A stretch of DNA of 63,982 nucleotides, filler included, from Basidioascus undulatus (GCA_000826855.1; 14 parts of 14 records of this genome joined end to end with filler, not necessarily neighbours in it), one strand, 5' to 3'; positions 3,016 to 39,592 are shown, counted from the whole stretch's first letter. Numbers and translations are program-made. Notes: generated by a model from the letters alone, not told the origin.

Positions 3016-3115
3016 NNNNNNNNNNNNNNNNNNNNNNNNNNNNNNNNNNNNNNNNNNNNTTAATTAATTAANNNNNNNNNNNNNNNNNNNNNNNNNNNNN
3101 NNNNNNNNNNNNNNN
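3016..3115. other. Artificial contig linker (N44-TTAATTAATTAA-N44); first of 13
   Basis: Identical 100-nt linkers with a six-frame stop palindrome also at 6130-6229, 9244-9343, 12357-12456, 15419-15518, 18504-18603, 42416-42515, 45527-45626, 48629-48728, 51729-51828, 54825-54924, 57921-58020 and 61017-61116. Confidence 0.99.
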
Positions 3116-18503: not shown

Positions 18504-18624
18504 NNNNNNNNNNNNNNNNNNNNNNNNNNNNNNNNNNNNNNNNNNNNTTAATTAATTAANNNNNNNNNNNNNNNNNNNNNNNNNNNNNNNNNNNNNNNNN
18601 NNNTCTTTCCCTCCCTCTCACCCA

Positions 18625-21600
18625 GTGACCCGCCCCCAACCCTCCAAGCGCACCTCCTCCCTTTCTCGGGGCTTCCAACCGACCCGCTCGACGCCGCCTC
18701 GCTCTTCCTGGGCTCGAGTATCGTCCTCTGCTCGCTCGGCGCTCTCGCACACGTCCCGGACGCGGTGGTGGACGCTGTACCCCCCGCGAGAGTTGCGCTG
18801 GATGGGGCGGCGTGGGTGGGAGGTGGCGAGGTGATGGTGCGCTCCTTCCCCTTTTTGGGTGGCCGGGTGAAGAGAAAGGGGATGGGAGGGCTGAGATGGG
18901 ATTGGGGATGGCGCGACAGTGGGTCTTGCACAAGTTTGGAGGGGCGATGAAGCAGGTCTCGTTCTGGGGCGATCCGGCGCAGCGTGCGTTGCGTGTTGCT
19001 TTCTCTTATTCTTTTCTGGACCGATGATGACTAGGACTGGCAAAGCTGACGGTGTGCGGAGGACGTGCAGGCCCGACCTCCGGCCCTGCCGAGCCCGTCG
19101 AGAACATCTTTGCTGTTAAACATCTCAAGGCGGGGGTGCTGAACCTCGAGAGGCAGTGTGCGTTTACTTCACCTCATCTTGTGGAAGAAGAAGTAAGAAA
19201 GTGGGGAGCAGGGCTGACTTGAGGAGGGAAATTGGAGAAGACCGCATGCCGTTTGCGCTCGCCCAGTTTTTGTCGAAAGAGGTGTACAGCGGAAAACTGC
19301 TGAGCGCTGAGAGCGAGGGGTGCGTTCGGCGCGCAGGTGCTTGAAATATCACGTGGCTCATTCGTTGTTGTCGGGGAAACAGGACGTGGGACTGCCTTGC
19401 GTTCGTGGATTGCAAGGCAGGCGAGCAGGCTGCGCCGGAGGGAGAGAGTTTCGTGGTGCTTTATTCTACCCGTCTCTCATCCCCACTGTTTCTCGGTTTC
19501 TCATAGCGTGTAGTGAATGCTAACGCAACCCCTTATCGCAGTCCGTCCCCGAGCAGCAAGCTATCCTCGACCTCGTCAAGAACTACTACGCCCACAAGCC
19601 GTACATCGTGCTCGTCCCCGCAGACTGCCCCGCCCAGCGCGACGCGGTCGAGCGCGCGCTCGTGGACGAGGGCGTGCCCGCGGAGGGGCGGGTATGCACG
19701 CTGGAGACATTCCAGGTGCGTTCCGTGCGAAGCGAGAGGGTCAAGTAGGATTGGCACTGATTGAAATTGGGTATGAATGAAGGGAGGAGAGTCGGAGGTC
19801 GTTCTGATCTCGCTCGTCAAGAGGGCGGACCGCGCCGCGGATGCGGAGGCCGCGGCGATGCTTGCGCGCTGCAAAGGGGCGGCGGTGGTTGTTACGCCTG
19901 TGCGTTGACCTTCCCCCTCCGTCGTCTTCCAGCCCCAAGCTGACGAGATAAACATTTGGCCCTCACAGCGCAAGCTTATCGCGTACAGCTCATCCAAGTC
20001 GCTCATCGCAAAGCTCGCCAAGGCGCGCGGCGAGAATGGCTGGGTGGAGGCGCGGGCTGTCGCGGAGGGGAGCGCGGACTTGCCAGGCGCGCCGGGGACG
20101 GTGAAGGTGGTGAGTTCGAGAACGATTACGGCTCGAAGGGTAGACGTGTAGGGAGCGGGAGCTGATCGTGTGCTGGGATCGGGGCGGGCAGGACGTCGTA
20201 CGCAAGAAGCCTAACACCCCCGCCTTCCCTCCCTCCCCCGCCTCGCCGAGCAAGACGAAGAGCGCGCCCGCTACGGCGCGCTTCACGCCCGCTGCTTCGC
20301 CCGTCAGCATCAAGCCGACGGCTCCCCTCCCCGGCCCGGCATCCTCACCCGTCAAGCCGACGCCAACCGCTTCCCATCCCACCGCCGCGAAGTCACCTCC
20401 GCAGCAGCAGCGCCACCTGGAGCCGACGCCCGCCCAGGCTGCGTCCGGCGCGTGGAAGCTGAGCCAAATAACGAAGACGGCCGAGTCGCCCGCGGAGGTG
20501 GTCAAGCCTTCGGAAAAGCGCCGTGAGGACCCGGCGGAGCGCAAGGGCAAGATTATCATTGGGAAGATGACGGGGAAGAATTGGCACACGCAGGGTGCGT
20601 CGTCCGGCCTAGGAATAGTACGAGCATGACTAATTGGGGTGGGGAGGCACAGCGTGTCGGTACTTGCTTAATAGGGAGAAGTGCCCTTATGGGGATCATG
20701 TGTGTTCCAGTTAGGTTGCGTGGCGGTGAGTGATCGTGAACGCTGATGTGCGGGGACTTTGATAGTGCACGTTCAAGCACGATCTCGAACCGGAGATCGT
20801 CCCGCCGCCGCGCAATAAGAAGACGCACCACAAACGCCCGCTGTCGCTGCCCGCGTTCGCGTCCCCCAAGCCTACGGGGGCGTTCACGCAACCTGGCGCT
20901 GCGCCCCCTCAGTATCAACTGCAGCAGCAGGAAACGCCGCCGCCGCCTCAGAAGGCGCCGTCGCCTCCACAGCAGCAGCAGCCGAGGAAGAGCTGTGCGT
21001 GCCTCTTTACGCGCCAACATCTTGAAGGCAGTTACTGACAGCCAGCGCCCATAGCCGCCCCGACGAGCACCGCGACCCCGTTCGTGTCCGCGTCCGTCCC
21101 GCTCACGCTCCCACCCGGGCTTGAGTCGTGGGTGCGCGACCCGCGCCCAAGCACGCCCCCGTCGTCGCTGCCCTCCAACTCGCCGCTCTTCCTCCGCCGC
21201 GAGCTGCCGGAGACCGAGGGTGGGAGCTCGGACGAGGTGCGTTCGCCTGGAAGATACAGGGGGAGAACGACAGCAGATTCGGGTGCTTTTGGGTGCGCAG
21301 TATGAGAGCGATGAGGAGGTCGGGATGCCTACTGCTGCTGAGGTGAGGATGTGATGCTGGATGGCGGTTCAACGGGTATTGAATTGCGTGGGGGCCAGAC
21401 GCGTTCTTCGGACTCGGGCAAGAAGGTCTGCGTCGACCGTATAGCGCAGAAAACTTCGACGTAAACTGATAGTCTTTGCGGGGCCGCAGTTCGGCGACTT
21501 CTCCGCCGTGCCCGACCCGAATCTCCCGCTCCTTCTCCCCGACATCAAAGCCGAGATGGCGGAGATCGCGAAGCGGTGGGGCGAGCGGCAGCGCGCGCCG

Positions 21601-24027
21601 ACGTCGCTCCTCGGTCTCGTCGAGCTCATCGTCCTCCACGTGCACCGCAACGACGCCAACTCGCTCCCGGCGCTCGCGCGCCTCGCCCAGGCCCACAAGG
21701 ACACGTTCGCCAGAGCCGTCAACCAGCCGTACCGCGGTTGGCCGCCGCTCATGTGGGCCTTATCGTGGAATGATCCGGCGCTGGTCAATGTGTGTATGAA
21801 GCGGTAACGAAGGGATTTTTGATGAGGAAGACGCTGATCGGGTTGGGAGGCAACAGTTCTTGCTCGATAATGGCGCGTCGCCTGATGCAGTCGGCGGTGG
21901 TGACGCTCGCATCCCGGCGCTGTACGTCCGAGTTGAGCCTGCCTAGTTGACGACGCTGACCTCGTTTTCGGATATCCTGCAGCGCTTTCTCCATCATCCA
22001 CGAGCACAGTCTTGAAAAGGCACGTCTTCTCTATCCTGCATACTGCAGCCGCATCGATCTACTTACGCTTCCCGCCGCCAACAGAGCGAGATGACGAAGC
22101 TTCTCCTGATGCGCGGCAGCAACGCCCTTGTCATCCCTACCCGCCTGCTCGAATCGACGATGCCGGCGCTGCGCACGCTGCCGGCGCCGCTGCTTGACGC
22201 CATTCAGACCGGGATGAGCTCGTGGGCGTCCGGCGGCTGGACCACCAGGCTCTCCGAGCACATGCCTCAGGCGATCCGGTGAGCGTCAGGCGGAGGTTGT
22301 ATGAGCGAGGCAATCAGAGCACGGGTCGCTGACATGCGAGGGACGCTATCGCCAGCTACATGGTCGCCAAGTTCATGATGGCTCAGGCCACGACGCCCGA
22401 GCAGAAACGCATCCTATCGTACCACTTGATGGGTGACCTTCCCAAGACGACGTAAGCGTTAGACTCCGACTGCCTTCTTGTGCGGCCGACTAATTACTGG
22501 CCGTCGCCTGGGTGGACAGCGCCGACATGATCGGGCAGGAGATGGCGTGCGACGAGCTCATTGAAGCCGTCGTCGCGCACCGCGACAAGGGCTCCAAGGA
22601 CCGCGCGCTCGTGTTGTTCTTCGCTGGTGCGTGTCTGAAAGTCTTTTTGGGAACCTGCGCAAGCTCATCGACGCCCGCGATGCAGGCCCGCCCGGCCATG
22701 GCAAGCGCCGGCTGGCGCGCAATAGTGCGTTTTCACTCTGATCGGCGTTGGAACGAGGCGGAGACTGAACGGCCCTTTCGCAAACGCAGTCGCCAGCGTC
22801 TTGAAGCTCGACATCTGCGAGATCGACCTCGGCCAGTATACGACGGAGACTGCGCTCTTTGGCAAGCCTTCGGCGCCGAGCGTAAGTGTTTGTGCTTCAC
22901 GGCAGAATTCGTTTCCGGTAGATACTGAAAAACGTGATATGGGCAGACATCGGGCTTGAACGAGTTCTTTGCTGAGCGCGACGGCGAGCGCGCTGTGGTA
23001 TTGCTGTCCGTCACCCTTTCGCCTCCCTGCTTGTCTCGCTCCAGTCGGTCTCACGCCTTCTCGTCACACACAGGGACGCTCCGGAGAAGCTCAAGCCGGG
23101 CTCCTCGCGTCTCTCCAAGATCTTGCTCCAGTTCGCGGACGGTCTGTAGTTTTGGTCGGACTTCGTGTACCCAAATCTCGAGGCTGACAGGGGCGGGCTT
23201 TGTAGGCTCGTACCTCGACAGGTGGACCGGCGGCAGCTGCGACTGCTCCGAGTTCATCTTCATCGTGACGAGCGAGGTCGGCAGCTCGACGATCCTCAAA
23301 TACGTCGATAACCATCCGTGAGTTGCACGGTGTGCATGGGCTTCGATGGTCTCTACTGATCTCGCGGAGGACGCAGGGAACGATTCGCTACGGGCTCGGC
23401 GAGCAAAGAAGTATGCCACAGGCTTCAGCACCTCCTCGAGCGCAAGATCCTCGCGAAGCTTGGGGTACGTGTTTCTCGCACATCACCCCAGTCGATGAAG
23501 TCTCATTCTTCATTGACAAAGGACTCGCTCGGCGAACTCATCATCCGCATCCTCCCCTTCACGCCTTTCGCCCCGCACGAATGTGCCGCTTTGGCCTCCC
23601 AGCTGCTACTCAATTCGAAGCGTCAGCTCGTCAGGTGCGCTATTTCCACGCTGTTGCGTGCCAACCGCATCCTAAGTTTGTTTGGTGCGCGGACGGAAGT
23701 CTCCTCGCGGAGAACCCAGAAGACGAACTTCTGGCGCAGCACCCGCTCTTCGGCGTCTCGGACGAACCGATGCTGGTCTCGCGCGTCCTCGCGCCCGCGT
23801 ACCAGTCGACCCACGCGCTCGGCGGGGTTGGGAGCCTGAGGACCGCCGTCGAGCGCTGGCTTGCCGACCCAGCCACTGCAGCCGCATCGAGCGTCGTCGC
23901 TCGCGCAACATCCGCGGGACCGCTCGCGGGACCGCCTCGCACGCAGTCGTCCTCCAATCAGGGCAGTGCGGGAGGGGGGGGTGAATGGGTCGAGGTTCAT
24001 GTAGGCCGACGCGGTAAAGGGCATTGA
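18625..24027 (+). CDS. Multidomain protein: degenerate SF1B (Upf1-like, AAA_11/AAA_12) helicase, CCCH zinc finger, ankyrin repeats, degenerate ClpB-type AAA+ (AAA_2); 5' end truncated
   Basis: About 27 introns splice into one open frame ending at the stop 24025-24027. Helicase motifs: IVLCSL, VALDGAA, FWGDPAQ, LERQYRMP, FLSKEVYSGKL, TLETFQG, VVLISLVK, MLARCK. CCCH: CRYLLNREKCPYGDHCTFKH. Ankyrin: GWPPLMWALSWNDPALVNFLLDNGASPDA, IPALAFSII..TKLLLMRGSN. AAA+: IGQEMA, LVLFFAGPPGHGK, LNEFFA..VVLLDAPEK, DGSYLDR..DCSEFIFIVTS, ILPFTPFAPHE. Confidence 0.8.
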
Positions 24028-24611: not shown

Positions 24612-26091
24612 TCAAGCAAACAACGCCGCCTTGATGTGTTCCGCGGCGAGCTTCACAGCCACCTTGGCAATAAAGCATGACGAAGTCGTAGATGATGCTG
24701 AGGAAGCGGACGCTGTCGTTCGCGTCTCAGGACTGTCAGCTGGGCCGTGCCTTTGCCTTGACAAGAGTGAAAGCAACGTACGCAGTAACGTCCACCCCGG
24801 CTTCACGCAGCTTCGCAGCGTACGCCTCGCCCTCGTCGCGGAGCACGTCCGCCTCGCCGGTGAAGACCAGACTCGGCGGGAGACCTTTGAGCTGCTCGAG
24901 CGGGGCCCGAAGAGGGCAGGCCAGCGGGCTCGTGCGGTCCGCGTCGCTCGCGGAGTACTGGTCCCAGAACCTGTTGTCCAAGGTCAATAAGCTCCCTTCA
25001 TTGGTTCCAGAGGGCCACAGGCCCTTACTCTCAACGCACTACTTCATGCCCTCGCGGCTGAGGAAGTAGTTCTTGGCGAACTGCTTGTAAGACCTACGTT
25101 TCAAAGGACCATTTGGTGACCGGGTAGAATAGGGCTGACAAATATGAAAGAAGACAGAGTAAGAAACTTTCTGTCTAGTACGGAAATGCGCATGTAAACA
25201 TGAAAGGACGCCTGACGCAGTCAGCTGCAAAGAACTTGACACCACCACGCTGCTTCGCCAGAAGCGTCTGTGCGATAGCCAAGCTCCCGCCGGCCTTCCA
25301 AGTCCCAACGAGTCAGAGAGTTCCTAAGTTGGAGTATTCAGATAAGAAGCACACACCGAGTCCCCAGCGATCGCGATCCGCTCGCCGTCCAGGCCCTTGT
25401 CCTTCCCCCGCCGGAAACAACCCACTGCACGGCGCTCCAGATCTCCTCGATGGCCTGTGGGAAGCGAGCCTTAGCAGAGCGAGTACTTAAATCTCAGTGA
25501 ACTCAGCCTTTCTGAGCTCATTGGCTGCGCTGACTCGTGAATCAGGCGCACCTCGACGAAGACCACAGCTGTGCCCGTCCGGGTCGCGAGCTCCGCAACG
25601 AGACGGTGGTGCGTGTGCGCATTACCGAAGACTCACCCTCTGGATTCAGCTTCATATTACTTAATCTCATTACTCTTGAGCATGTTCATAACACACGCTC
25701 CGTGGACGTAGACAAGGACAGGTAGCGCCATGTCCGCGGCGTCAGCAGCTTTGACGATCTGGACCTTGACGGGGTCCTTGCCGTTTTGGTCTGAGGGACA
25801 GAAACTCCCACTCCAGACCGCACGTCGTCGACCGTTTTGCGGCCCTGGTTTCAGAATCTAAGGTGAGCTATCGCTACTCGAGACACGCAGGCAGACGTTT
25901 AGGGACAGGAAGCGGTTGCTCACCTCCGGGATGGGGAGTTGGAAAAGGAAAGGCGGGGAGCTTGTTACCTGAACGCTGGAAACATGAGCGCCAGCACAGC
26001 TCCACAGATGAACGAGGAACACGAACTCTGCGAACTCAACAGCGGCAGCCTCGAGCACAACGGGCGTGGTGGTGGACGGGGTGTTCGGCAT
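24612..26091 (-). pseudogene. HSL-family alpha/beta hydrolase (Abhydrolase_3 esterase), disrupted
   Basis: VVLEAAAVEFAE|VTSSPPFLFQLPIPE|GRKTVDDV, LVYVHGA, VFGNAHTHHRLVAEL, GDS|AGG and LPPSLVFTGEADVLRDEGEAYAAKL are present. Disruptions: a 1-nt frameshift in the G-run near 25405-25410, the catalytic His replaced by Tyr (IYDFVML, 24688-24690), and a C-terminal deletion/frameshift. Confidence 0.8.
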
Positions 26092-26914: not shown

Positions 26915-28510
26915 CTAAACCGGTTGCTGGGGGGCCTTCTCGGCCTTGATGTTGTCGATATCGTAAGCTCTCTGCTTGGCTGCCTCCTGCTCCTCCTTGT
27001 TCTCGTACACAACCGGACCCCAGTTCCTGCCGTGCGCGACGATATGGAGAAGGTCGTTCCGGGAGCTGTGGTGGAAAAATTCGTTGCACAGTTCACTTTT
27101 TTAAAGCCTGTTCCAAGGGCTGAGGCTCGCGAGACTCTTCGACTCACTAATTGCCCATGGGGTCGGCCACGAGCTTCACCTCGTCAATCTTGTCCAGTGA
27201 GATTTCAGCATACAGAATTTCCTCGACGCCAGGGTCAATGGACTTGGTAATCTGGGAGCCATCGGGGCCGTATATCTGTTTTTGGATGGAAAGAAGAAGA
27301 GGACTGTACTTCAGCTTGAGGCAAACAGGCGACAGTGGAAAAGGTAGATTTAGGAGTGGAGGACCGACCGTCGAGAAGCCGCCACCGGGAAACTTGAACC
27401 ATTGGAACCCGGCGATCTTCATCTTCTCGGCGCCCGCCTCACTGACGACCTGGCACCCGACAATGCCAAAGCAGCCTCCCTCCATCGCGACGAGCTGTGT
27501 CATCCGGCTCGACGCTTCGCCGCTAACGATGTACGGAGAGCCTCCAGTATGGGGTGGGAAGGCGGGCCACCATCCACCGACAAAAATCTGCGGATACTGG
27601 GAATAGAAGTGACACTTGAGGAAAGGCTGAATATACCCAAGGCGGGTGTACGGGTGTGTGGTAGGTGGGTTCAGACGCTCCAAAGCATTCCGAGGCTGAC
27701 TCTTGACTCACTTGAATGTGTTCCCAGCAGTTGAGGCTTCCCAGCCGGCCGTACTCAGTCTGTACAACGTTGTAAATACTCTGAGCTGAAGGGGAAATTA
27801 AATGATCCGAGCGCCTTAGCACCAGTACGTCAAATGCCAATCACTATACGCACCGCTCCCATCGCCATAAATCGTCCTCTCGTAGTGTGTCGGCTGAGAG
27901 ATTAACTGCAGTCAGTCCGTATCACCGCCCGCTCATTACCCGCTCAAATAAACGAGGCCTCACCTTGATCTTGCGGCGGTGATTGGCAATCTCGCCGTCC
28001 GACGTGATCGTGACTTGGGCAATGTAAAGAGACCCCGCGTCGCGCTCGGAGAAACCGAGGACGACCGACGCTCCGGCTAACTTGACGGCTTCGCGGATGC
28101 GATCCATCTCGGGGGAGCGCAGTGGCAGTGAATTGGCCTGGTACTGCTTCAGGACACCCTGGCTCGTCACGAAATCGTTTGCCCACGGGGTCCAAGGGTA
28201 TCCTGGACGCATCAGTGGAGTCAGAAACGGGGAATAAGGCAAGCAAAAGAGACGTTTCGCGCCTGGAATGAAGACTTCGGGAAAGCCGATGATTTTGGCG
28301 CCCTCGCTGGCAGCCTCCCGGATGATCTTGATCGTCTTCTCAACGCTCCCTTGGAGGTCGAGCCAAACCCTAGTCGGTGCCTATGACTTTCTTAGTTCTC
28401 TGCTCTAGTTCCAGGAGACAACAACTGCAAGACACTCACGGCTCGGCCTGCACAGCGGCAACCTTGAACTGGCGAGCATCGGCGTTGGAGGGGCTGAGCG
28501 TGACGGGCAT
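26915..28510 (-). CDS. Nitrilase (carbon-nitrogen hydrolase, fungal nitrilase/cyanide hydratase class)
   Basis: FKVAAVQAEP|VWLDL; triad motifs FPEVFIP|GYP, HRRKIK|PTHYERTIYGDG and LNCWEH; then GGGFS|IYGPDG and DPMGNYSRND. ATG at 28510, stop at 26915; the frame is intact after splicing (one GC-AG intron). Confidence 0.93.
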
Positions 28511-30302: not shown

Positions 30303-38056
<7,754 letters not shown>

Positions 38057-38946
38057 TGCGGATGGCGGAGGATGCGGTTGAGAGGGTTCTTATGCTGTTG
38101 CGATTGCACAGATGGAGGTGGGAGGGAAATAAATCTGGAGATCCCCTGCTGCTGACGCATCAGCGTCTTCGCGTTTGCCAGGAACGAGCCGACCTGCCGA
38201 GCGGGCCGGCCGCCACCCGGTTGCTTACCGCGCTCTTGCGCGCTCGCCTTTACTGCATTTTCTAGTTGTGGATACCGTTTGAGCTGTATAAAAATGAGAC
38301 TACAGCCCTAGATAGTGAAGATGTAGAGCCAAGCACGCAGCAGGGCGGCAGCCGGGCGACAGAGTCGAGTTGCAGAGTCGCAGGCCACCTGGACCACTCT
38401 TGCGGTATTTTGCTCCTGACAGGGGCATACAAGCAGCTTCTTTCTGCTTTCATTGGCCAGAGGAGCAGCACACACGTACTTTGATGCATTCCGAGCAGCC
38501 TTATTTGAACGAAAATGTGTAAAATGCGAGCCAGTCCTGTCAGTACATCTCGCAGACTGACGGCGACAACGCGACAACGCCGCATTATGTCGACGCTGAG
38601 GTCAAGTCTGCGTCTGTGTCGAGCATGACGGCAAATGAAGTGCTCGCAACGGTACCGCGCCCTACTTCATTGAGGCATATCCCAAGCTGAAGGCTGAAGC
38701 GAAACGCCTGAGGACTCCAAGGGCTGCTGAGAACGATGCGTCTTCGCGTTTCGCGCGCTGATGACGTTGCTTGCCCTCCTCGCCATTCCCTCCGTGCTCG
38801 TCGCTTTCCTTCAATCCACCACCACCGCTTCCCCTCACCCTTCCAATCCCCCACAACCTATTTAATCTGTTCGTAAATACCTGAACCACCCTCCCAGCGC
38901 TGCACTAAATCACTTCCCCCTCCCGCCCCCACAGACACCCTCCACC

Positions 38947-39592
38947 ATGTCCTCCGCTTGGCAAGTCCGCTTCTCCAACTCGCGCCAGCAGCCGTACTTC
39001 TTCAACTCGGAGACCCGCGAGTCCATCTGGGAGCCTGTGCGTCCCATGCCCGCCCTGTCCTCAACATATCCTGTCTCGTGCAGGGGCTGACGCGTCGGTG
39101 TGGTGTGTGCAGCCCGCGGGCATGACCGACGCGCAGATCCGCGAGCTGCCCGGCGCGGACCTGCTCGTCAACGGGCCGCCCAAGGTCCGGGCGTCCCACC
39201 TCCTCATCAAGCACGCCGGTTCTCGTCGCCCCGCATCCTGGAAGAACGTGTGTCCACTTCCCTCTCCCCTCCCCTCCCTGTCCTCTCCTCATCCCCGCCC
39301 CCTGTCCGCTCCTCAGGACAACATCACCCTCCCGCTCCCCGACGCGCTTGCGCAGCTCAAGGCGTTTGAGGCCGAGCTGCGCGCGGCCCCGGACCTGCCG
39401 GAGCGATTCGCTGTGCTCGCGGGCGAGCACAGCGACTGCTCGAGCCACGTGCGCGGGGGCGACCTCGGCAGGTTCACCCGCGGCCAGATGCAGAAGCCGT
39501 TTGAGGACGCCGCGTTCGCGCTCCAGCCGGGGGAGATGAGTGGGCCGGTGGAGACGGATTCGGGGGTGCATTTGATTTTGAGGCTGGAGTAG
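38947..39592 (+). CDS. ESS1: Peptidyl-prolyl isomerase Ess1/Pin1 (WW domain + parvulin), 3 exons
   Basis: WW domain WQVRFSNSRQQPYFFNSETRESIWEP|P; parvulin KVRASHLLIKHAGSRRPASWK, SDCSSH..GGDLG.F.RGQMQKPFEDAAFAL..SGPVETDSGVHLILRLE*. Confidence 0.96.

Follow-up and report, generated by a model that had tools for sequence, protein, structure and literature searches.

The one long contig in a stretch of 63,982 bases of DNA from Basidioascus undulatus carries at its left end a gene whose predicted product joins, in one polypeptide, an SF1B (superfamily 1B) helicase, a CCCH zinc finger, an ankyrin-like region and a AAA+ module, and it is this fusion gene on the + strand that concerns us here. The whole stretch, which we call the window, is not continuous, since separate contigs have been chained in it via 13 N44-TTAATTAATTAA-N44 spacers (for example, at 3016-3115 and 18504-18603), and any feature crossing a spacer would therefore be an artefact. 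The contigs are of about 3 kb each, except for the single 23.8-kb contig (18604-42415) that carries the gene.

The first 22 bases of this contig (18604..18625, + strand), as judged from the sequence read and the spacer layout, form a pyrimidine tract followed by CAG, the 3′ end of an intron, and the contig therefore opens within an intron and does not contain the 5′ exons. Visible coding sequence starts at about 18626 and the gene is truncated 5′ by the contig end, with the upstream exons, including helicase motif I and the N-terminal portion of the RecA1 domain, lying outside the contig. A search of the window’s other contigs with family profiles for this absent 5′ end (motif I and N-terminal RecA1) did not find it. 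The end of the preceding contig (18400-18503, - strand) holds an apparent exon with a GTGCGT donor, which is unrelated to the gene.

The exons were chained by a dynamic-programming splicer that permits GT..AG introns, rejects any path with an in-frame stop and rates codon usage as well as splice sites, its parameters having been bootstrapped from the evident long exons, and three places were then corrected by hand: a micro-exon that completes the zinc finger, the acceptor at 19783 and a GC-AG intron at 22020-22084. The final model runs from 18606 to 24027 on the + strand and consists of 27 exons and 26 introns in a single frame of 1,188 codons, ending in a TGA at 24025..24027 that is found in both sequence and model. 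Exons 1-7 occupy 18606-18836, 18920-18983, 19071-19157, 19241-19319, 19383-19455, 19542-19715 and 19783-19899; exons 8-13 occupy 19969-20109, 20192-20594, 20653-20699, 20766-20994, 21055-21236 and 21301-21342; exons 14-20 occupy 21490-21789, 21857-21921, 21983-22019, 22085-22278, 22356-22451, 22520-22626 and 22686-22724; and exons 21-27 occupy 22790-22881, 22947-23005, 23074-23141, 23206-23317, 23377-23464, 23522-23634 and 23700-24027, all on the + strand. All but one of the introns are 57-87 nt long (25/26), the remaining one, intron 13, measuring 147 nt, and a CTRAY branch site lies 5-45 nt ahead of the acceptor in 16 of the 26. By splice type there are 25 GT-AG introns and one GC-AG intron, number 16 (22020..22084, + strand, GCACGT donor), which is required for the ankyrin-like frame to stay open and was chosen because a GT donor near 22024 yields a nonsense frame and was rejected. 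Two other candidates were dropped along the way: some overlong introns of 120-232 nt in an early model, which proved to have micro-exons hidden inside, and an acceptor at 19792, which gave way to 19783 because the latter restores the Gly-Gly-Glu of motif V and agrees with the helicase profile.

Since a splicer of this kind can find an open path in any DNA that is rich in GC, controls were run. With the same algorithm and parameters the path score is +393 on the gene strand against -16 on its reverse complement, and the neighbouring ABC-transporter gene, on which nothing had been trained, gives +332 in sense and -32 in antisense. Strong donors of the form GT[GA][CA]GT number 16 on the + strand as against 2 on the - strand (shuffled sequences average 5.0 and never have more than 13), and the model uses 15 of the 16 as donors; the one unused, at 20726, falls inside intron 10 and could be an alternative 5′ splice site, and an exon extended to it would meet a stop at 20712-20714. 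In addition, when composition is modelled with a period of three, the frame of the model is the favoured one in all 27 exons, including four linker exons that had been excluded from training, and third-position GC is strong in every exon. Before splicing, there is essentially nothing to be seen, since none of 62 unspliced ORFs (open reading frames) of the window matched Pfam, our three domain profiles reached at most 6.3 bits on the unspliced six-frame ORFs, and Pfam on 21 exact exons gave only faint matches, all below the cut-offs. That the family signals arise only upon splicing is therefore independent support for the exon chain, which we regard as well established as a prediction. An earlier note on this DNA had claimed a single frame from the contig start to the stop at 24027 through about 27 introns, with junction introns beginning at 20110, 20595 and 20700 and an architecture that is invisible as a unit among the ORFs; the frame and the invisibility have both been borne out, the introns number 26, and the three junctions coincide exactly with introns 8, 9 and 10 of the model.

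The front of the predicted protein is a Upf1-like SF1B helicase, made up of the rear of RecA1 and RecA2 and placed at 18626..20109 (+ strand, exons 1-8) by the model, the motif positions and column statistics. Its motifs lie at 18798-18815 (II-like), 18968-19075 (III), 19154-19254 (IV), 19707-19812 (V) and 19858-19875 (VI), all on the + strand. An AAA_12-family profile, prepared from 29 of 30 bacterial ORFs located with PF13087 (one ORF of fewer than 600 residues was left out), matches RecA2 across exons 3-7 (19136..19836, + strand, residues 121-254) with 40.1 bits and an E-value of 2.4e-12, against 1.5 bits for the best of 200 shuffles and -1.0 for the reversed sequence, and in the spliced model this establishes the RecA2 identity. 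Motifs IV (QYRMPF) and V (TFQGGESE) are in register with the profile consensus and satisfy Q-x-R-M and T-x-x-x-F-Q-G-x-E, respectively. The motif III Gly-Asp (29/29 references), the motif III Gln (28/29) and the motif VI Arg (29/29) are retained, and a second motif VI Arg (25/29) and an Asn (27/29) are lost. At motif II, the Glu found in 29/29 references is replaced by Gly in the model (LDGAAW, as placed by MAFFT), and no Asp-Glu pair occurs anywhere in exons 1-2, so that we consider this Glu to have probably been lost, if by no great margin of confidence. Pfam helicase models gave no matches on single exons or unspliced ORFs, and sequence searches of the PDB with exons 1, 27, 7 and 4 returned nothing meaningful.

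Exon 9 encodes the first linker (20192..20594, + strand, residues 323-455), a stretch of some 130 residues rich in Pro, Ala, Lys, Ser and Thr that is defined by its frame margin and composition. There follows a CCCH zinc finger of spacing C-x8-C-x5-C-x3-H (20655..20780, + strand, residues 458-477), which is split by intron 10 (20700-20765, + strand) and present only once introns 9 and 10 have been removed. The spacing itself is firmly established in the spliced model: the single occurrence there compares with one shuffle of the model out of 5,000 and with one occurrence in all 100,299 residues of the unspliced ORFs. The second linker (20781..21342, + strand), Pro/Ser/Gln-rich with an acidic patch, takes up the rest of exon 11 and exons 12-13, with introns 11 and 12 inside it. 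Beyond this lies a helical, ankyrin-like region (21490..22278, + strand, exons 14-17), whose best repeat (21724-21889, + strand, residues 702-734) spans the exon 14/15 junction and whose possible second repeat (21911-22132, + strand) is seen by eye only. Pfam Ank_4 touches exon 14 faintly (E 0.15), and atlas leads for the same exon point to ankyrin-like clusters at 0.95-0.97; on balance, we favour the view that ankyrin repeats are present.

The rear of the protein is an Hsp100/Clp D2-type AAA+ large domain (22521..23410, + strand, exons 19-25, residues 855-1024), with Walker A at 22626-22711, the pore loop at 22861-22955, Walker B at 22995-23089 and sensor 1 at 23262-23282 on the + strand. A Clp-D2 profile built from 27 ClpA/ClpB D2 references, themselves located by Pfam models, matches the predicted protein across seven exons with 33.7 bits (E 1.9e-10; best shuffle 2.0), and its Clp-D2 identity is on that footing established. 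An alignment with the second nucleotide-binding domain (NBD2) of Escherichia coli ClpB covers residues 857-1006, or six exons, and in a panel of E. coli proteins ClpA-D2 scores 26.7 bits and ClpB-NBD2 21.3, against 4.5 for ClpX, 4.4 for HslU and no more than 5.3 for shuffled queries; two further K-12 AAA+ ORFs score below zero against the model. Pfam Torsin is faintly matched by exon 19 (E 0.096, 13.2 bits against a cut-off of 27). Comparison with the 27 references shows that four residues, each of them invariant (27/27), are replaced in the predicted module: the Walker-A Thr by Arg, the pore-loop Tyr of G-Y-V-G by Thr with a two-residue insertion alongside, the Walker-B Glu by Ala and the sensor-1 Asn by Glu. 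Other positions have been kept: Walker A still has its Lys, Walker B its Asp and the second Glu-Lys of its box, and most of the structural positions of Clp-D2 are retained. The remainder of the protein (23411..24024, + strand; the rest of exon 25 and exons 26-27) consists of a presumed lid and an Ala/Gly/Ser-rich tail.

Set beside these domains, the individual assignments of the earlier note have fared variously. An SF1B helicase fold had been proposed for 18625-20100, and of this the RecA2 portion (exons 3-7) stands and the RecA1 portion (exons 1-2) goes unsupported by any profile. The CCCH finger expected at 20653-20780 is where it was said to be once the gene is spliced, and an AAA_2 module anticipated at about 22520-23640 has its counterpart in the Clp-D2 large domain found at 22521-23410.

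What, then, might such a protein do? The overall explanation that we think best, and to which we would give a probability of roughly 0.5, is that of one truncated basidiomycete gene of at least 1,188 residues, with the order helicase, linker, CCCH finger, linker, ankyrin-like region and AAA+ module, whose product would be a ribonucleoprotein (RNP) scaffold and not a motor. Functionally, the protein is at present best read as a scaffold that binds RNA without catalysis, and a mechanism can tentatively be sketched for it, to be taken as a whole: neither the helicase nor the AAA+ module would work as a motor, the helicase shell together with the CCCH finger would act as an RNA-holding clamp, surfaces for protein binding or self-association would be provided by the inactive AAA+ module and by the ankyrin-like region, and the long disordered linkers would make of all this a flexible RNP scaffold as opposed to a translocase or unfoldase. 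More speculative, and in our opinion doubtful, is the further idea of a ‘double pseudo-NTPase’, in which Upf1-like and Hsp100-D2 shells have both been switched off and kept, with the CCCH finger and the ankyrin part, as RNA clamp and assembly surface of a lineage-specific RNP scaffold, perhaps in RNA surveillance or genome defence.

The earlier note had instead seen in this gene an RNA sensor driving an oligomerising output of the ClpB/Skd3 type, and a working version of that idea, in which an active helicase drives an active, hexamer-forming AAA+ module with the aid of non-canonical catalytic residues, deserves to be weighed first among the alternatives. The domain order would suit it, as would the parts that both motors have kept: in the AAA+ module the Lys of Walker A, the Asp of Walker B, the second Glu-Lys of that box and most structural positions, and in the helicase motifs III to V together with the Arg of motif VI; moreover, the arginine finger and sensor 2 are without a reliable alignment. 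Against this, four residues found in 27/27 Clp-D2 references have been replaced, two of which are needed for the disaggregase activity of Skd3, mutants at the Walker-B Glu and at the pore-loop Tyr being reported to lack that activity (PMC7343390), and the motif II Glu (29/29) has given way to Gly in a protein whose exons 1-2 offer no Asp-Glu pair. It is because of these four Clp-D2 replacements and the loss of the motif II Glu that we consider a role as active sensor and remodeller to be unlikely, and the claim of a sensor with an oligomerising output is not supported. A part in fungal innate immunity, which the earlier note had thought possible, is speculation.

A second alternative, which we hold to be improbable, is that two genes lie side by side on this strand, one for the helicase that ends at the TAG at 20149-20151 with the 20110 intron left unspliced, and a CCCH-ankyrin-AAA+ gene that starts further down. 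Every junction donor is indeed followed by an in-frame stop if it goes unspliced: retention of intron 8 leads to that TAG, retention of intron 9 to a stop at 20627-20629, and each of introns 8, 9 and 10 yields a stop within 4-13 codons. There is also an in-frame ATG at residue 448, just ahead of the finger, GC-rich DNA keeps frames open by chance, with the splicer threading control DNA as well, and the single-transcript model is itself a prediction. What decides the matter for us is exon 9. These 403 nt are coding in the exact frame that exon 8 hands over, with a frame margin of 37.0 against a maximum of 22.3 among 177 non-coding windows of equal length, and there is no Met between residues 262 and 448, the first in exon 9 being residue 448 itself, so that exon 9 cannot open a gene and would have to belong upstream. 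If exon 9 were part of an upstream gene ended by retention of intron 9 (20595..20652, + strand, 58 nt, GTGCGT donor, CTAAT branch), a downstream gene would then have to start inside the upstream coding region. Intron 8, at the junction of the two halves (20110..20191, + strand), has a consensus GTGAGT donor, CTGAT branch and CAG acceptor and a typical length of 82 nt, and no non-coding stretch in the model exceeds 147 nt, which leaves little to house a terminator and a promoter. Because exon 9 is coding in the frame passed to it, and because no Met precedes residue 448, we are rather confident that this is a single gene with one transcript, and the fused architecture that the earlier note had claimed is upheld, at the level of the sequence, by its statistics and by matches to profiles that depend on splicing.

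A number of points weigh against the scaffold reading of a single fused gene, and they should be faced together. The exon chain consists of introns predicted from sequence, and the assembly is broken up into many contigs of 3 kb, in which unrelated loci might have been joined or bases called wrongly. The family profiles were built for this analysis from bacterial members, and the single-exon runs against Pfam, the PDB and predicted folds produced nothing significant. No profile supports the RecA1 part (exons 1-2), the position of motif II rests on MAFFT and on spacing, with hmmalign leaving exons 1-2 unaligned, and the atlas has no usable match for exon 1; for these reasons of alignment and atlas the loss of the motif II Glu is the less secure of the catalytic losses. 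Of the ankyrin repeats claimed for about 21720-22140, the profile finds one in place, and that one weakly (12.1 bits, E 0.0024, the best of 200 shuffles reaching 6.4), the second having been recognised only by inspection, and for exon 14 by itself the predicted fold has a mean pLDDT (predicted local distance difference test) of 51, too unreliable for a fold search. The local Clp-D2 alignment stops at residue 1024, beyond which forced alignments of ClpB_D2-small disagree over the lid, the arginine finger and sensor 2. Roles in RNA binding, clamping and self-association are only inferred from the domains. Finally, no orthologues were found in searches with exons 6, 14 and 27.

These last blanks are wide in scope. 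Exon 14 had no match in an exhaustive phmmer search of 1.84 billion representatives, nor among longer proteins or metagenome contigs, exon 27 had none in metagenome contigs, and exon 6 had none among 91 candidates at E-values up to 10, a single 19-residue match in a bacterial genome being taken as chance. How much they weigh can be gauged from a neighbour on the same contig, a nitrilase/cyanide-hydratase exon (27925-28380, - strand; CN_hydrolase, E 1.7e-16), which has 109 relatives with a best identity of only 67%, and for which all 65 organism-named matches among P0002-P0065 are basidiomycetes. The source is, on this sequence evidence, a basidiomycete lineage without a close relative in the searched libraries, from which fast-evolving exons are therefore expected to give blanks, and since even a conserved exon reaches only 67% identity, the absence of orthologues weighs little.

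The other neighbours are an Abhydrolase_3 gene (24736-25038, - strand), which converges on the 3′ end of the fusion gene, a large, intron-rich ABC transporter gene with ABC_membrane matches (31500-37700, - strand) and an exon of a parvulin-type peptidylprolyl isomerase (Rotamase; 38909-39589, + strand). Together with the nitrilase/cyanide hydratase and a GNAT gene, these are ordinary metabolic and transport genes, and none suggests a function for the fusion gene.

That the locus is non-functional, whether as a decaying copy or as an assembly chimera of two unrelated loci joined within a low-complexity stretch, is the least probable of the alternatives, since the loss of catalytic residues from both modules, the want of relatives of exons 6, 14 and 27 in very large libraries and the position of the joins beside Pro-rich low-complexity sequence in a fragmented draft assembly have to be set against 1,188 stop-free codons and 26 introns with intact signals (from base composition, random DNA of the same kind is estimated to contain some 28 stops), strong third-position GC in all exons, a pattern of change that keeps the structural positions of both folds and alters the functional ones, as is typical of pseudoenzymes and not of random decay, and blanks that the 67% identity of the conserved enzyme next door leads one to expect.

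We think, then, that the scaffold reading of a single gene is the one to carry forward, and that its architecture is probably both real and undescribed: a combination of helicase, CCCH finger, ankyrin repeats and AAA+ module is not described in the literature searched, whose coverage did not extend to subscription journals. A single transcript, if real, would bring together in one protein the Upf1-like SF1B helicase and Hsp100 D2 AAA+ families, two families that, to our knowledge, do not occur together. If the whole reading is true, the gene would also furnish a clear natural case of motor domains reused as binding modules, with the folds kept and the functional residues replaced. Such genes in intron-dense fungi are likely to be overlooked unless spliced models are built, since here Pfam matched no ORF or exon above its cut-offs and the profiles stayed so low on unspliced ORFs.

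How does this gene compare with systems that are already known? Its best pairwise matches are the D2 domain of E. coli ClpA and NBD2 of ClpB (AAA_2), with which it aligns in register at Walker A, the pore loop, Walker B and sensor 1; here, however, an N-domain, NBD1 and M-domain are all missing, the functional residues have been replaced and the D2-small lid is unrecognisable. On the helicase side, HELZ, ZNFX1 and proteins with ZAP-type fingers come to mind, since an AAA_12-type RecA2 with motifs IV and V and a CCCH finger are here too combined in one polypeptide. In HELZ the finger is N-terminal to the helicase, and we know of none among HELZ, ZNFX1 and the ZAP-type finger proteins that has ankyrin repeats or a Clp-type AAA+ module; unlike helicases of the HELZ/ZNFX1 type, moreover, the protein predicted here has a motif II that has probably lost its Glu.

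A loose precedent for a scaffold derived from a Clp ATPase, to be taken only as a ‘works like’ analogy, is provided by the plant SMXL/D53 proteins. These ‘atypical Clp-ATPases’ are presented as Clp/Hsp100-derived regulatory scaffolds that are not known to be unfoldases and that localise to condensates (PMC9133912). They are described as plant-specific, with a double-NBD layout like that of ClpB and with Walker A and Walker B retained (PMC9133912). In comparison with the fusion gene, they lack the helicase, the CCCH finger and the ankyrin part.

The closest likeness for the rear half is Skd3 (human CLPB), in which an ankyrin-type region likewise stands directly upstream of a single Hsp100 D2-type AAA+ domain with NBD1 absent. 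Skd3 is a mitochondrial disaggregase that requires its Walker-B Glu and pore-loop Tyr and is first seen in choanoflagellates (PMC7343390). By contrast, the Walker-B Glu, pore-loop Tyr, Walker-A Thr and sensor-1 Asn have all been replaced in the fusion gene, a helicase lies upstream of an ankyrin-like region of weak signal, and the host is a fungus, outside the reported range of metazoans and choanoflagellates (PMC7343390); Skd3, for its part, has a targeting sequence. The Skd3/CLPB layout that the earlier note had proposed for the rear half thus stands as a layout and fails at the four catalytic residues. If our reading is true, the arrangement of ankyrin repeats with a single NBD2 would have arisen outside the animal and choanoflagellate lineage of Skd3.

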